Below, piece after piece: positions 13,649 through 49,670 of a stretch of 55,380 nt of DNA. The DNA comes from a virus (lineage: Duplodnaviria > Caudoviricetes), in IMG/VR virus record IMGVR_UViG_3300037339_000563, positions 1 to 55,380 of that record; one strand, given 5' to 3'. The notes below the pieces were generated by a model. It did no database searches, was not told where the DNA came from, and saw only the letters and a list, made by a program, of their open reading frames with translations. How positions within the stretch are numbered: position 1 is the first letter of the stretch; every line of letters begins with the position of its first letter. Made by a program: the position numbers and the translations under genes.

Positions 13649-14234
13649 CGTGACCGCCTGCTGGAGTGGCGGTCACCTTACCCCAACAGTACTTAGCCGC
13701 GACATAGGCGTCCATTTCATCTTGGGTTGGGAACACAAGCCCCTGCGCCCTCAGTCGACCCTCGATGAGATCCTTGACGGTAGCTCGCTTCTTCTTCCCA
13801 TGAGCCCCTGGGATATCCCCATACGAGACCCTGCGCTTCTTCTTGCCCTTGGAATCGACGTAGTCGACGAAGGTGCGCTCGATCTTACCAACGACGACCT
13901 TACGCATCTCTGTGGCCTCCTTGACCATCGGGAACTTGCCGCTAGCCAGATAGACCTGCACCTTGACTACGCCGTGGATCTCCCCTATCGCCGCTGCCTG
14001 CCACATCTGATTCTTCGCGGGCGCTTCGATGATGATGTGGTCGGGAATCTCGCCATTGATAAGACTGACGATCCGCTCAGTAATGGCGACAAGCCTGAGG
14101 ACGCGCTCCTCCACGCTCTTGGCCTCACCCTGCGGACAAAGCTCAGTCCGCATCGTCGGATCGCCGCCTGGATCGCCTTCCAGGAGACAGATGCCGGTAC
14201 CCTTCAGGCTAAGATCGAGACCCAGAACCTTCAT
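13614..14234 (-). CDS. ruvC: RuvC-like Holliday junction resolvase
   Basis: MKVLGLDLSLKGTG, IIIEAP, DEMDAYVAA. Confidence 0.8.
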   Translation of the reverse strand: MKVLGLDLSLKGTGICLLEGDPGGDPTMRTELCPQGEAKSVEERVLRLVAITERIVSLINGEIPDHIIIEAPAKNQMWQAAAIGEIHGVVKVQVYLASGKFPMVKEATEMRKVVVGKIERTFVDYVDSKGKKKRRVSYGDIPGAHGKKKRATVKDLIEGRLRAQGLVFPTQDEMDAYVAAKYCWGKVTATPAGGHDDSNKAKIKRS

Positions 14235-14595
14235 CTCTGAGCCTTCTCTGCGCGCGTGCTCTGGCAATGCCAGAAACAGCAACTATTGACGACAATATCC
14301 TGTCCGCTTCAGTGGACCGGACGACTCCATCATCGGAGATCTTCTGGTTGATTGAATTTTCAACCTCGACAACAAATTCACAGATCCTGTCCTTGTTCTC
14401 CCGGCCCCATGGACTGGAGTAAAGGAAACACCTGGCGCACGAAAAGTAACTATTGGGCGGCTTACCGACGATCCATCGTGACCCCGTCGAGCACGTCATG
14501 CACGGCATGGACGTAGCGCCTGCGTCAAATGGACGAATCCACTCGGTGTCTATAATGATCGGTCTATTCATTGTCATAGCACCCCCGAAAAACAC
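14209..14595 (-). CDS. hypothetical Zn-finger protein
   Basis: CMTC...CARC. Confidence 0.55.
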   Translation of the reverse strand: MFFGGAMTMNRPIIIDTEWIRPFDAGATSMPCMTCSTGSRWIVGKPPNSYFSCARCFLYSSPWGRENKDRICEFVVEVENSINQKISDDGVVRSTEADRILSSIVAVSGIARARAQRRLRDEGSGSRS

Positions 14596-37006: not shown

Positions 37007-37102
37007 CGAACTGATCCGCCAATCCCGTTCCTAGGCATTCTAGAACGCCTAAGCAGGGCACCACTCATCCAACTCTGAATTGGACGTGGGAGGATCAAAC
37101 AC

Positions 37103-37188
37103 GGAAAGTGGTCTAGCTGTGGAGCTAGCGCGGTTTGCTAAACCGATGGAACCCTAACGGGTTTGAGGTTCGACCCCTCCTCTTTCCG
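37103..37188 (+). tRNA. tRNA-Ser(GCT)
   Basis: CGGT-TTGCTAA-ACCG, variable arm. Confidence 0.85.
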
Positions 37189-39637: not shown

Positions 39638-39713
39638 GACCCTATCCTCCAACTGGCCAGGAGAGCCGATTCTCAGTCGGTCAATCGGGGCTCGAATCCC
39701 CGTAGGGTCGCCA
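39638..39713 (+). tRNA. tRNA-Glu(CTC)
   Basis: GCCGA-TTCTCAG-TCGGT, CCA. Confidence 0.87.
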
Positions 39714-39777
39714 GGTGAGCCGGAGACTGTGGGTTATCACTTGTAATGAACCTCCCACCGTCAACAAATTGTTCACC
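39714..39777 (+). ncRNA. Y-RNA-like element 2
   Basis: GGTGAGCCGG...GGTTATC...TTGTTCACC. Confidence 0.6.
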
Positions 39778-39784
39778 ATCTTTT

Positions 39785-40026: not shown

Positions 40027-40071
40027 TGACCATCCAGACTCCCATCGGAGAGATAGAGGCCTAACGATTTA

Positions 40072-40133
40072 GGTGAGCCGGAGTTCAAGGGTTATCACCA
40101 TAACAATTCCCCTTGGACAACCATTTGTTCACC
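40072..40133 (+). ncRNA. Y-RNA-like element 4
   Basis: GGTGAGCCGG...GGTTATC...TTGTTCACC. Confidence 0.6.
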
Positions 40134-40141
40134 GTTTTTTT

Positions 40142-40204
40142 TAGCGAGCCGAAGTGGTTGGGTTACCATCAAAAACATACCCAGTCACAACTCCTTGTTC
40201 GCTA
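40142..40204 (+). ncRNA. Y-RNA-like element 5
   Basis: TAGCGAGCCGA...GGTTACC...TTGTTCGCTA. Confidence 0.6.
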
Positions 40205-40211
40205 TTTTTTT

Positions 40212-40276
40212 AGATGAGCCGGAGCTATTGGGTTACCTTGAAAATGTAACACCCAGAAGCAACCACTTGTTCATCT
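40212..40276 (+). ncRNA. Y-RNA-like element 6
   Basis: AGATGAGCCGG...GGTTACC...TTGTTCATCT. Confidence 0.6.
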
Positions 40277-40283
40277 GCTTTTT

Positions 40284-40355
40284 GCACGAGTAGTTCAGCG
40301 GAAGAATACTGCGTTGACATCGCAGAGATCGTCGGTTCGATCCCGACCTCGTGTA
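40284..40355 (+). tRNA. tRNA-Val(GAC)
   Basis: CTGCG-TTGACAT-CGCAG. Confidence 0.9.
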
Positions 40356-40360
40356 CTTTT

Positions 40361-40567
40361 GCCCCTGTGGCCAAGTGGTTAAGGCGCTTGATCAAGCATG
40401 CAGCTCATTAGTGCGGCACGAAGAGATCGATCGTCTCTTACGGCTGTACTGACCGGGCGAGTCGTACGGAGGTAGATCGCCTCCAAGTGGTCTGGATTGA
40501 TCATCCAGATTGCTGCACACGATGCATGACGAATTGAGAGACGTCGGTTCAATCCCGACCAGGTGCA
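40361..40567 (+). ncRNA. tRNA scaffold with 140-nt multibranch insert replacing the anticodon loop
   Basis: intact acceptor, D and T arms; CTTGAT/ATTGAG stem encloses nested stems and GAT-loop hairpins. Confidence 0.7.
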
Positions 40568-40577
40568 GGCAATTTCA

Positions 40578-40652
40578 GCCCACGTGGCGCAACGATAGCG
40601 CACTCCGTTGGTATCGGAGAGGTTGCGGGTTTGATTCCCGCCGTGGGCTCCA
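40578..40652 (+). tRNA. tRNA-Thr(GGT)
   Basis: CTCCG-TTGGTAT-CGGAG, CCA. Confidence 0.85.
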
Positions 40653-40931
40653 ATAGAACGCACTCAGGCTGCTCGTCGATGTGGCTGAACGGAGGAGAAA
40701 TTCCGAACAGCATCGAGCACTCCTCACGCGATAACGGCGCAAGCGCTTGCGCTGATCGGACCTAGGGTCCCGCGTACATTGAACATCCGGGGCGGCGGCC
40801 CCTCTTTTCTTCTCGGTTCTTTACCAGACGAGGGTAGATCCCGGAGCCAGCCTTAGTAGTTGGACGGGTCTGGTTGATGAAAGTCAGCGTCCGATAAGCA
40901 CTTCGGCCGTGAAGAATCGAGACCTTTTCCT

Positions 40932-41079: not shown

Positions 41080-41089
41080 CGAACGATAT

Positions 41090-41160
41090 AGGGCGCCCGC
41101 TGGGCGGGGATTGGTCTCCAAATCCGATCTTGCAGAGTTCAATTCTCTGGCGCCCTGCCA
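41090..41160 (+). tRNA. tRNA-Trp(CCA), short D-arm
   Basis: loop CTCCAAA, AGGGCGC/GCGCCCT-GCCA. Confidence 0.78.
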
Positions 41161-42075: not shown

Positions 42076-42357
42076 ATGGCTACTAGAGAACAGATCCAGT
42101 CCTACTTCGAGGAATGCCATGGCGAAGAGGAGTTCCTCCTCGCCGACGGATTTGAGAACGCCTTCATCGGCGTCGTCTACGGCAAGATGCGCGAACCGGT
42201 CGCTTGCTACGACCGCAAGAAATGCATCTCCATCCTGATCGCCAGGGACGGCATGACCGAAGAAGACGCCGAAGAGTTCTTCAGCTTCAACGTCGACGAC
42301 GCCTGGATGGGCGAAAAGACTCCGATGTTTCTAGATACCTTTGAACCGATGGTGTAG
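42076..42357 (+). CDS. conserved phage hypothetical protein
   Basis: ADGFENAFIG...YDRKKCI...EDAEEFFSFNV..AWMGEKTP. Confidence 0.8.
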   Translation: MATREQIQSYFEECHGEEEFLLADGFENAFIGVVYGKMREPVACYDRKKCISILIARDGMTEEDAEEFFSFNVDDAWMGEKTPMFLDTFEPMV

Positions 42358-42469
42358 TGGCAGCACAATCAAAAACCCGTTTTTCAATCAATTGCTCGCG
42401 CAAGCGAGCCGGCCGAGAAATGGTTACCCATGCAAGGGATAGACGCTGGTTCGATTCCGGCTCGGTTCA
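42343..42469 (+). ncRNA. tRNA / Y-RNA chimera 1
   Basis: tRNA acceptor, D, T arms with TTGCTCGC-GCAA-GCGAGCCG...GGTTAC insert. Confidence 0.65.
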
Positions 42470-42480
42470 CGATTCGTTAT

Positions 42481-42608
42481 TGCGCGATAGTTTAGTGGCA
42501 AAACACCTAAACCCGTCTTTCGCCAAAATTGTTCGCTTCGGCGAGCCGATTGAGGGATGGTTACCGACTCATAATCGGGTGTCGCATGTTCGATTCATGC
42601 TCGCGCAA
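42481..42608 (+). ncRNA. tRNA / Y-RNA chimera 2 (retains CAT anticodon hairpin)
   Basis: TTGTTCGC-TTCG-GCGAGCCGA...GGTTA then CCGA-CTCATAA-TCGG. Confidence 0.65.
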
Positions 42609-42617
42609 CTAGTTTAT

Positions 42618-42678
42618 GCTCCCTGGATCAGACACTGGCCAGTGGCCTGCTCGATCGGCGGGTTGAAGGGGAGCACCA
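42618..42678 (+). ncRNA. acceptor-stem-capped small RNA ending ACCA
   Basis: GCTCCCT/GGGGAGC-ACCA enclosing two hairpins, one with TCGATCG loop. Confidence 0.5.
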
Positions 42679-46898: not shown

Positions 46899-46979
46899 GG
46901 ATCGGTAGCTCAACGTAGAGCGCCAGGATCTGATGCAAGTCAGAGCTTGGAGATGGTGGTGCAAGTCCATCCCGATCCG
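46899..46979 (+). ncRNA. anticodon-less tRNA mimic 1
   Basis: anticodon arm extended: TCTGAT-GCAA-GTCAGA. Confidence 0.65.
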
Positions 46980-46984
46980 CGTAC

Positions 46985-47077
46985 GCGGAGGTAACTCAGA
47001 GAGCCCTTTTTATCGGGGGCCAGGAAGAGTACCGAGGGTAACCTTGGGAGTCGGTGGTTCGAGTCCATCCCTCCGCA
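46985..47077 (+). ncRNA. anticodon-less tRNA mimic 2
   Basis: hairpin inserted in D-loop; CCGAGG-GTAA-CCTTGG tetraloop arm. Confidence 0.65.
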
Positions 47078-47081
47078 CTAC

Positions 47082-47462: not shown

Positions 47463-47536
47463 GATTGCGTAGCTCAACGGCAGAGCATCCAGGCTTAAGC
47501 AACCGGAGGACGCGGGTTCGACTCCCGTCGCATTCG
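47463..47536 (+). ncRNA. tRNA-like element with distorted anticodon arm
   Basis: canonical D/T arms; TCC-A-GG-CTTAAGCAA-CC-GGA. Confidence 0.55.
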
Positions 47537-47610
47537 CTCACGTAGCCCAACTGGTAGGAGGCACCGATTTCAAAAATCGGACAGTGCGGGTCCGAATCCC
47601 GCCGTGAGCA
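47536..47610 (+). tRNA. tRNA-Leu(CAA), short variable loop
   Basis: CCGAT-TTCAAAA-ATCGG. Confidence 0.82.
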
Positions 47611-49012: not shown

Positions 49013-49670
49013 GTGTCGGCAATAGTAGAAATCCGAAGTGGTGAGGGCGGAGATCACTCGAAGCGCCTCGTTCAAGACCAGTTCTCCATTTACGCAAAGA
49101 TGGGGAGCCGGAGGTGTCTTTAGCGTCGAACTTCTGACCGAGCGCCCTGGACTCATCGTCTTCAGGGCATCTGGCAAGGGCGCCGATATAGCGTTTGCCA
49201 ACGAATCGGGTGGACACCGCTGGCAGGAGAAATCCGGTGGAAGAATGCAGACTTCCACGATTACGGTAGCTGTTCTCCCTGAGCCGACGGCCACGCAGGT
49301 CATCGTTCGAGACGACGATCTGGAGTGGAACTTCTGCCGTGGATCTGGCGCCGGAGGGCAGCACCGCAACGTCACCAACAGTGCCGTGCAACTGACTCAT
49401 GTCCCCACCGGAATCTCTGTACGCTGTGAATCTGAGCGCTCTCAGCACAGCAACAAAGAAACCGCCCTGGAGATCTTGCGAGCAAGAATATGGGATGCTG
49501 CAAACGAGCAAAGGTCGTTAGCCCTGTCGTCGTCACGCAGAGAGCAAGTGGGGTCGGGAATGCGGGCAGACAAGCGCCGAACGATCCGATCCCAGGATGG
49601 AGTCGTGACCGATCACGTCCTGAACAAGCAGTGGCAGCTAAAAAAATATCTCCGAGGTGACTGGGATTGA
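49013..49670 (+). CDS. class I peptide release factor homolog expressed via +1 frameshift
   Basis: frame 0 MSAIVEIRSGEGG...RRCL*, slip site GGAGG-TGT-CTT-TAG-C, +1 frame with ESGGHRWQ, TSTITVAVLP, GSGAGGQHRN. Confidence 0.87.

Follow-up and report, generated by a model that had tools for sequence, protein, structure and literature searches.

What is encoded by a gene that keeps the body of a tRNA and carries, where the anticodon loop should be, 142 nucleotides of other RNA? The question is raised by a 207-nt element in the IMG/VR virus record IMGVR_UViG_3300037339_000563, which was taken complete (55,380 bp, corresponding to an estimated 38% of a genome) and is referred to below as the window. 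The element lies on the + strand at positions 40361 to 40567, without an encoded CCA, inside a phage tRNA array. The most likely reading is that of an RNA gene, tRNA-like but non-decoding, which is specific to the strain and forms an item of accessory cargo in a variable slot of that array. As to its function, a probability of about 40% is given here to the reading that it yields a processed, stable accessory RNA which captures several copies of one loop-specific partner.

A tRNA body without an anticodon loop

The 5' strand of the acceptor stem, GCCCCUG (40361-40367, +), pairs with CAGGUGC (40560-40566) at six of seven positions, the lone mismatch being C3·U70, and a discriminator A follows at 40567. 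The D arm, GCC(A)-AGUGGUUA-(A)GGC with G18G19, occupies 40370-40385 (+), and the T arm, GUCGG-UUCAAUC-CCGAC, occupies 40543-40559 (+). A preliminary description of the locus, made from the letters of the DNA, had reported a normal acceptor with one 3:70 mismatch and normal D and T arms, and all of these are present. Between the D and T arms there is an anticodon-type stem of 5 bp, two of them G·U, in which CUUGA (40387-40391, +) pairs with UUGAG (40534-40538).

The set of tRNA tertiary contacts, as given by the general consensus, is complete in the element: U8, A14, G15/C48, G18G19, A21, G53-C61 and U54U55C56..A58 are all in place. The cloverleaf body of a canonical tRNA is therefore there, in its three arms and in its contact nucleotides. 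What is missing is the canonical 7-nt loop with U33 and a purine at 37, the place of which is taken by a structured insert of 142 nt (40392-40533, +); the replacement of the loop had been described before, with a length of 140 nt. As it stands, the element cannot act as a decoding tRNA. Neither ARAGORN, also when run with introns of 0-400 nt permitted, nor the Rfam tRNA model RF00005 makes a call over 40361-40567.

Decoding and splicing

A tRNA gene interrupted in this way might be an intron-bearing gene, from which self-splicing or an enzyme would remove the insert to leave a working tRNA. The anticodon loop is the usual site of bacterial group I and archaeal introns, and, like intron-containing tRNA genes, the element has a large insertion at that site and is elsewhere a normal tRNA. 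In archaea, bulge-helix-bulge introns of tRNA genes are known to carry functional RNA in some cases (PMC4090602). When every stretch between element positions 26-47 and 150-181 was removed in silico, ARAGORN called a tRNA for 80 of the 529 excised forms, several of them as tRNA-Arg(ACG) or tRNA-Leu(AAG). The acceptance of so many forms means that the frame of the element is tRNA-like. It does not, however, bring back a canonical loop: in all eight of the 7-nt loops that can be placed on CUUGA/UUGAG, base 33 is C or G. UCACGAA (Arg ACG) and UCAAGAA (Leu AAG) are the best of the eight, and a tRNA-Arg(ACG) is already present in the array. The junction between exon and insert is a symmetric 5x5 internal loop, and not a bulge-helix-bulge, which consists of two 3-nt bulges around a 4-bp helix. 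Since no loop with U33 is restored and the junction is symmetric, an intron restoring a functional tRNA is unlikely.

Other observations point the same way. The group I catalytic core (RF00028) has no match in the element at E-values up to 10 with permissive filters, nor does any ribozyme model, and even the smallest known group I introns, at roughly 200 nt, are well above the 142 nt of the insert. The replication genes of the phage, RecA/UvsX and DnaB, are of bacterial type. Taken with the lack of any intron signature, these points make an intron-bearing gene highly improbable. None of the excisions in silico restores a normal loop, as would be required by the alternative that the preliminary description had itself set against its own proposal.

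A search of the insert against Rfam with permissive filters and E-values up to 10, which covered group I and II introns, small ribozymes, transfer-messenger RNA (tmRNA), Y RNA, ROOL and GOLLD, returned no family. A tmRNA was rejected on further grounds, as there is no ARAGORN or RF00023 call at the element and its 3:70 pair is C·U rather than G3·U70. A recognition site for IleRS or a TGT-type enzyme and a tmRNA-like tag frame were considered and dropped. The target-site duplication of a mobile element was likewise considered and dropped, the sole repeat being the UUGA of the stem itself.

Three hairpins with one loop motif

The insert has a minimum free energy (MFE) of -59.9 kcal/mol, against a mean of -43.4 (standard deviation 4.0) for dinucleotide shuffles, of which none in 300 folded as well (z -4.1). 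For the whole element the MFE is -81.5 (z -2.9), a value equalled by 2 of 200 shuffles. The reverse complement of the insert folds more weakly, at -48.5. This difference, together with G·U pairs that fit the + strand, indicates an RNA read from that strand, which is also the strand of the array.

Beyond the 5x5 internal loop (UCAAG / ACGAA) the insert is closed by a helix of CAUGCA (40397-40402, +) with UGCAUG (40523-40528). Inside it there are three hairpins with 7-nt loops on the + strand: AAGAGA-UCGAUCG-UCUCUU at 40421-40439 (loop 40427-40433), GGAGG-UAGAUCG-CCUCC at 40468-40484 (loop 40473-40479) and UCUGGA-UUGAUCA-UCCAGA at 40491-40509 (loop 40497-40503), the stem of the last being extendable to about 11-12 bp. 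CGAUCG in the first loop and UGAUCA in the last are 6-nt palindromes. These hairpins, with GAT in their loops, are exactly as they had been described beforehand.

Two overall folds can be drawn around them. In the multiway junction proposed in the preliminary description, CAUGCA pairs with UGCAUG and GUGCGGCA (40411-40418, +) with UGCUGCAC (40511-40518); both pairings can form, although the junction reaches only -67.7 kcal/mol, compared with -80.2 for the MFE fold with the tRNA arms enforced. In the MFE fold GUGCGGCA is paired instead with 40443-40452 and GUGCGGC is paired differently, giving a 21-bp extended arm below the first hairpin and a 12-bp arm below the third hairpin listed. A further optional hairpin, GUAC(U)GAC-CGGGCGA-GUCGUAC (40446-40467, +), occurs only in the junction fold, the MFE fold pairing these bases elsewhere. 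The two folds cannot be told apart from a single sequence. The closing helix and the three GAUC-tipped hairpins are kept in both.

The stems of the three hairpins are unrelated, whereas their loops all read U-N-GAUC-R, and they sit within 90 nt of one another. TNGATCR occurs at 96 sites on the two strands of the window; only five of these have a flanking stem of at least 5 bp, and three of the five are those of the element. In 200 dinucleotide shuffles of the window the number of such hairpins averaged 0.585 and never exceeded 2, and no two fell within 100 nt. The display of one motif by several loops on unrelated stems, which is characteristic of CsrB-like RNAs, is thus present in the element and in none of the 200 shuffles. 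As an internal comparison, one loop motif on unrelated stems argues for selection on hairpin and loop together. The GGA motif to which CsrA/RsmA binds is absent from the loops, which read GAUC. Outside the element, the + strand of the window has a single TNGATCR hairpin, at 42643-42665, where a stem of 8 bp (4 G·U by reading) carries the loop UCGAUCG; it lies just past the second of the two Y-RNA-like chimeras described below.

What do these loops resemble? They had been taken for GAU anticodon-like hairpins, a comparison that turns out to be weak. tRNAs have U33 and a purine at 37; the three loops have C, A and U, respectively, at the position of 33 and C in every case at that of 37. Only UUGAUCA comes near the loop of the phage tRNA-Ile(GAU), UUGAUAA, matching it at six of seven positions and differing at position 37 alone. 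What they have in common is the GAUC palindrome, closed by a U...R pair, and this describes them better than anticodon mimicry does. Because their first and last bases can pair (U·G, U·G and U-A), they may be the pentaloops CGAUC, AGAUC and UGAUC. The second of the three hairpins was also considered as a Shine-Dalgarno or anti-Shine-Dalgarno mimic, since GGAGGU-A-GAUC resembles the complement of the 3' tail of 16S rRNA, and GAUCGCCUCC the tail itself; the idea was post hoc and was dropped.

Other RNA modules on tRNA frames in the array

The element is not alone in the array in carrying a second module on a tRNA frame. At 42343-42470 and 42481-42609 (+) there are two tRNA bodies in which a Y-RNA-like helix of about 55 nt, closed by a tetraloop, occupies the anticodon-arm position. 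The module has the form ...AUUGYUCGC-tetraloop-GCGAGCCG...AUGGUUACC. Both of these Y chimeras are conserved in the nearest related record, G001 (L026:14292-14419 and 14148-14276, - strand), and 11 of their 29 consensus pairs show compensatory two-sided change. The existence and conservation of the Y chimeras show that this phage lineage uses tRNA frames for other RNA modules, and as they carry them at the position of the element's insert, they support a natural scaffold. The natural tRNA scaffold put forward in the preliminary description therefore gains ground, from this precedent and from the intact body, the replaced loop, the failure of excision to restore a tRNA and the lack of an intron or ribozyme model.

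A likeness to the chimera module is seen in four free-standing hairpins at 39712-39779, 40070-40135, 40140-40205 and 40210-40277 (+). Each is about 66 nt long and has a T run behind it, and the last three lie in tandem just upstream of tRNA-Val and the element. Their invariant letters are GAGCCG.AG...GGGUUA.C...CCC...CAAC...UUGUUC. They score 25.5-30.1 bits on RF01656, the model of the nematode stem-bulge RNAs, below its cut-off of 38 bits. Stem-bulge RNAs are homologs of Y RNAs, and the four hairpins have the appearance of Y RNAs in miniature, the Ro60-binding helix included. These weak matches of 25-30 bits are confined to the neighbours of the element: RF02553 and RF01656 have no match inside it and it has no Ro60-binding helix consensus, so that it was rejected as a Y RNA or YrlA. 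A TROVE (Ro60) gene is present in one of the five records (G001:173561-174439, 127 bits) and there is none in the window, which represents about 38% of a genome.

YrlA, as described by Chen and colleagues, reportedly ends at its Ro-binding stem. The Y chimeras would have the reverse topology. Y RNAs with tRNA-like domains have been found beside Ro60 in more than 250 bacteria and phages (PMC4201824).

In G001 a complete three-domain EF-Tu gene (L027:539-1741, - strand; 206, 68 and 97 bits) lies immediately upstream of the Y chimeras. Its place in the window is occupied by an unrelated open reading frame (ORF) of 93 amino acids.

A variable slot between tRNA-Val and tRNA-Thr

The window encodes a large terminase, a RecA/UvsX-type recombinase and a DnaB-type helicase, and is thus assigned to a tailed phage with replication genes of bacterial type. 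Cultured phages are all distant from it, the highest terminase identity among 50,697 phage records being 37%. The tRNA array extends over 34.8-52.5 kb on the + strand and contains 38 tRNA genes according to ARAGORN (42 when introns are permitted) and 33 Rfam tRNA matches at the gathering score. Four related IMG/VR records have the same array with its gene order nearly unchanged and contain 47 (G001), 40 (G004), 11 (G002) and 8 (G003) tRNA matches. G001, the nearest of them, is 194 kb long and has a terminase 91% identical to that of the window. A neighbouring ORF of 347 amino acids, used as bait, led to eight loci that shared a common domain only and had no tRNA arrays.

The element lies between tRNA-Val(GAC), at 40284-40356, and tRNA-Thr(GGU), at 40578-40652, and it is in this slot that the relatives differ. 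The first 49 nt of tRNA-Val(GAC) are identical in the window and G001. When the two arrays are aligned by blastn, 40357-40536 is specific to the window, while 40537-40654 aligns to the 3' half of the G001 tRNA-Val and to tRNA-Thr. G004 has a gap of 345 nt at the slot, in which a Cys-rich open frame of about 53 amino acids can be read from the printed DNA.

Parts of the region occur in 24 public sequencing runs, mostly sediment metagenomes, and those of four runs were examined over 40100-40800, as contigs rather than reads; contigs are unable to show RNA ends. A contig of 395 nt from one run (X2) contains an identical copy of the element, with 0 differences, in an independent sample. Another contig of the same run has 217 other letters between tRNA-Thr and a tRNA-Val that differs slightly, and a contig from an RNA library (X5) has 223 other letters between the two; these cassettes could be diverged homologs of the element or two or three ordinary tRNAs. 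A third type of contig is identical to the window from 40619 on and different upstream, where it has a different tRNA 5' half with a loose end resembling the loop UUGAUGG. As identity starts at 40619, there must be a recombination breakpoint inside the tRNA-Thr gene. The variant contigs make the slot polymorphic among close strains, with tRNA genes as crossover points. The interval 40356-40620 is in this sense a recombination hotspot. A gap in coverage over the element in runs X3, X4 and X5 counts as no evidence. Between the flanking tRNAs no promoter-like site occurs, and on the + strand nothing resembles a terminator until 40789-40802, after tRNA-Thr.

Such a setting raises the possibility that the element is a recent chimera or pseudo-tRNA without function, produced by recombination in the array from a tRNA 5' part, a palindrome-rich piece of 140 nt and a T arm copied from tRNA-Val, and that it is tolerated and unused. 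Its absence from G001, where tRNA-Val(GAC) and tRNA-Thr(GGU) are only 7 nt apart, the polymorphic slot with a breakpoint within tRNA-Thr in one strain, and the alignment of 40537-40654 to the G001 tRNA-Val and tRNA-Thr are all compatible with this. So too is the T arm, in which all but one of 17 positions (16 of 17) agree with the T arm of tRNA-Val next to it (40331-40347); in the window and six array segments of relatives the T stem GUCGG/CCGAC is found only in the element and this adjacent gene, the G001 tRNA-Val having GUGGG/CCCAC. The match suggests duplication, or a patch of gene conversion, between the neighbouring genes, as might be left by a recent local rearrangement. Both the C3·U70 mismatch and the missing anticodon would be expected from decay, and the element is an orphan in all of the collections searched (see below).

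On the other hand, the acceptor 3' strand differs from that of tRNA-Val at four of seven positions and yet pairs with the element's own 5' strand at six of seven, and comparison of the 5' third and exon parts with 144 array tRNAs disclosed no parent. The element is therefore not simply a copy of tRNA-Val. Junk would not be expected to retain every tRNA tertiary-contact nucleotide, to fold at a z of -4.1, or to place one loop motif on three hairpins with unrelated stems. A functionless chimera is doubtful, yet it is the strongest of the alternatives to a working RNA. Even as a mere by-product of recombination, the element would document active reshuffling inside the tRNA genes of the array.

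A proposed accessory RNA for a loop-specific partner

If the element instead encodes a processed accessory RNA that captures several copies of one partner, its production can be envisaged as follows. It would be co-transcribed with tRNA-Val and tRNA-Thr, and its intact tRNA body would allow excision and finishing by RNase P, by RNase Z or exonucleases, and by the CCA-adding enzyme. The tRNA fold would then confer stability, as with engineered tRNA scaffolds, and the extended anticodon arm would present the 142-nt module with its three arms. The U-N-GAUC-R tips would act as repeated binding sites that capture or titrate several copies of one partner, most plausibly a protein of the host or of a rival element that acts on hairpin or anticodon-type loops. 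The preliminary description had put forward a multivalent sponge, on CsrB-like logic, for a GAU(C)-recognising nuclease or RNA-binding protein; the evidence speaks neither for nor against that version.

Phage tRNA arrays have mainly been seen as a source of spares against host defences that cleave tRNAs (PMC10264068). Because the slot is swappable and lies in an array thought to counter tRNA-directed defences, the accessory RNA is probably a decoy. A decoy or sponge of this kind may be useful only against some hosts, which would account for its patchy occurrence. Accessory and counter-defence loci often vary in cargo, and the cargo of this slot differs from relative to relative (7 nt, 345 nt, and 217 or 223 letters). 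A more specific version, in which the tRNA body is solely a handle for processing and stability and the GAUC loops serve either as a decoy for an anticodon-loop-directed host defence factor or for self-association through kissing loops, seems somewhat unlikely.

Several points weigh against a partner-capturing RNA. The absence of the element from G001 and the close likeness of its T arm to that of tRNA-Val have been described above. The loops lack the signature of anticodon loops, two of the three being without U33 and all three without a purine at 37. We know of no protein that recognizes GAUC hairpin loops. GATC is, moreover, common throughout the phage, with 389 occurrences in the window against 210 expected from base composition. 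No contig from an RNA library covers the element in the runs examined, which says nothing about its expression.

To these must be added the result of the homolog searches, which found no relative in viral, genome, phage or plasmid collections and leave the element without support from conservation or covariation. In viral contigs an exact 27-mer of the junction had no match, nor did a pattern running from D arm to T loop with a gap of 140-170 nt, and an exact 38-mer of tRNA-Val, used as bait, found only G001. A tRNA-Val pattern with one R likewise found only G001 in metagenome contigs, a collection scanned with this neighbouring gene as its sole bait, and nothing in genome contigs. A pattern of three loops with free stems gave 25 matches in viral contigs, none with three stemmed loops and each with at most one loop on a stem of at least 4 bp; among the matches listed for genome contigs (121, at 120 or more loci) none had two or more loops on stems of at least 4 bp. 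With blastn, the best alignment of the 207 nt to the five related phage records was of 31 nt (E 0.036); phages were matched by the tRNA-Thr flank only and not by the insert alone, and plasmids gave nothing. A covariance model built from the single sequence recovered from the five records the element itself (274 bits) and one ordinary tRNA of G002 (26.9 bits). A scripted scan of the relatives' arrays for long tRNA-framed genes returned only the Y chimeras and noise from adjacent tRNA pairs. In the literature, a narrow search found no tRNA-framed RNA with GAUC loops, though one may be in print.

The loops could also be recognized by RNA. GAUC is a self-complementary tetramer, and loops such as CGAUCG, GAUC and UGAUCA might kiss to form dimers or larger particles, or might pair with other RNA containing GAUC or GAU. 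In a variant of this idea the target is tRNA-Ile(GAU), whose anticodon loop might pair with the loops of the element, since each of these spells AUC, an Ile codon, and then a purine. Identical loops on unrelated stems would suit recognition by base-pairing; GAUC stands at loop positions 3-6, on the 3'-stacked side used by anticodon loops; and two of the three loops contain a 6-nt palindrome. There is a precedent in phage ROOL and GOLLD RNAs, which form RNA-only cages partly through kissing loops (bioRxiv 10.1101/2024.12.08.627333), although the 207-nt element matches neither model. Given GAUC, moreover, flanking complementarity in two of three loops has a chance probability of about 0.16, so the longer palindromes are not significant. 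A kiss of 4 bp is weak, and closure by U·G or U-A would leave loops of 5 nt. An RNA-RNA device is a real alternative, though an unlikely one.

The same letters might also act as DNA, the fold of the RNA being incidental; the palindromes might then be a cluster for methylation or binding, for example, or a hotspot of recombination. The element contains five GATC sites as well as GCATGC, ATCGAT, CGATCG, CGTACG, TGATCA and ATGCAT, and its seven six-base palindromes, counted by eye, compare with about three expected. The densest GATC cluster in the window, with seven in 207 nt, is here and includes two in tRNA-Val; the locus is, as noted, a hotspot for recombination. However, the spacings of the GATC sites (35, 4, 46 and 24 bp) lack helical phasing, and the density is modest, as about 2% of 207-nt stretches of the phage hold at least five. 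The presence of G·U pairs, and the fact that the reverse strand folds less well, indicate RNA, and a complete tRNA body frames the element on the strand of the array. A role at the level of DNA would accordingly be very surprising. GATC is a common methylation and restriction site, and the phage, with 389 copies against the 210 expected, does not avoid it.

Relation to known RNAs

A non-decoding phage RNA on a tRNA body, as assumed for the partner-capturing RNA, has precedents in YrlA and, more broadly, in tmRNA; from the sequence, the 142-nt module and the triple display of GAUC appear to be new. The closest parallels to the element are the Y chimeras of the array and YrlA (Chen et al. 2014, PMC4201824), which are likewise encoded by phages, do not decode, and combine a tRNA-like body with a second module. 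In the Y chimeras this module is at the very position of the insert. The element differs from both in having no Ro-binding helix, and instead a 142-nt module with three GAUC loops. Unlike YrlA, the RNA of which reportedly ends at the Ro-binding stem, it ends at the acceptor stem, and unlike the Y chimeras it is not conserved in G001, which keeps the chimeras.

CsrB and RsmZ are sponge RNAs that allow multivalent titration of a protein, since a single short loop motif recurs on several hairpins whose stems are unrelated. The element displays its loops in the same way, but with GAUC in place of GGA, at three sites only and within a tRNA frame, and it is an orphan rather than a conserved family. 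In its setting it may also be likened to RNAs C and D, which are encoded in the tRNA cluster of phage T4: small, stable RNAs of obscure function, other than tRNAs, that mature together with the tRNAs.

Engineered tRNA scaffolds with a replaced anticodon arm yield stable RNA in E. coli (PMC3753655, PMC3401473). In the approach of Ponchon and Dardel the anticodon arm is exchanged for a foreign structured RNA and the cell processes and protects the product; the arrangement of the element is similar, but natural, and is known here from sequence. Structured RNAs are also found beside phage tRNA islands in the case of ROOL and GOLLD, and tRNAs are sometimes embedded in GOLLD (bioRxiv 10.1101/2024.12.08.627333). 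Those RNAs are of 500-800 nt or more, conserved and supported by covariation, unlike the relativeless element of 207 nt, which was rejected as a member of either family, matching neither Rfam model.

If the element works as an accessory RNA, the content of phage tRNA arrays extends to non-decoding RNAs for which the tRNA body is a borrowed means of maturation and protection, and which strains would exchange as they do other accessory cargo. Together with the neighbouring Y chimeras, it would make such arrays platforms for exchangeable tRNA-framed accessory RNAs, and it would be a natural counterpart of a widely used engineering trick. At 207 nt it would offer a small and tractable model for RNA decoys or, should its loops kiss, for self-associating RNAs, and in the latter case a miniature relative in kind of the ROOL and GOLLD assemblies. 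It would also be a reason to look in other arrays for "tRNA genes" that the gene finders skip.

Further observations in the array

Several other genes of the array are unusual. An odd pair of tRNA-like genes at 46899-46980 and 46985-47078 (+) scores 47.4 and 35.9 bits on the Rfam tRNA model; the second of them has an extra hairpin in its 5' half, and its counterpart in G001 (L026) has a longer, different insert in place of that hairpin, so that here too a tRNA frame carries an insertion that varies. Two tRNA-like genes missed by ARAGORN, at 41089-41157 and 37102-37188 (+), score 24.9 and 44.9 bits on the tRNA-Sec model; by reading of the sequence they are a tRNA-Trp(CCA) with an unusual D region and a tRNA-Ser(GCU), respectively. 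A protein with an RF-1 (GGQ) domain is encoded within the array at 49038-49670 (+, 103 bits). Lastly, a tRNA at 47463-47537 (+), which overlaps the start of a tRNA-Leu(CAA) by 2 nt, has an anticodon loop of 8 nt and is assigned the four-base anticodon 'taag' by ARAGORN. The gene is also present in G001 (L026), while its counterpart in G004 (L028) is read as 'ctcg', and it could be a quadruplet- or frameshift-reading tRNA.

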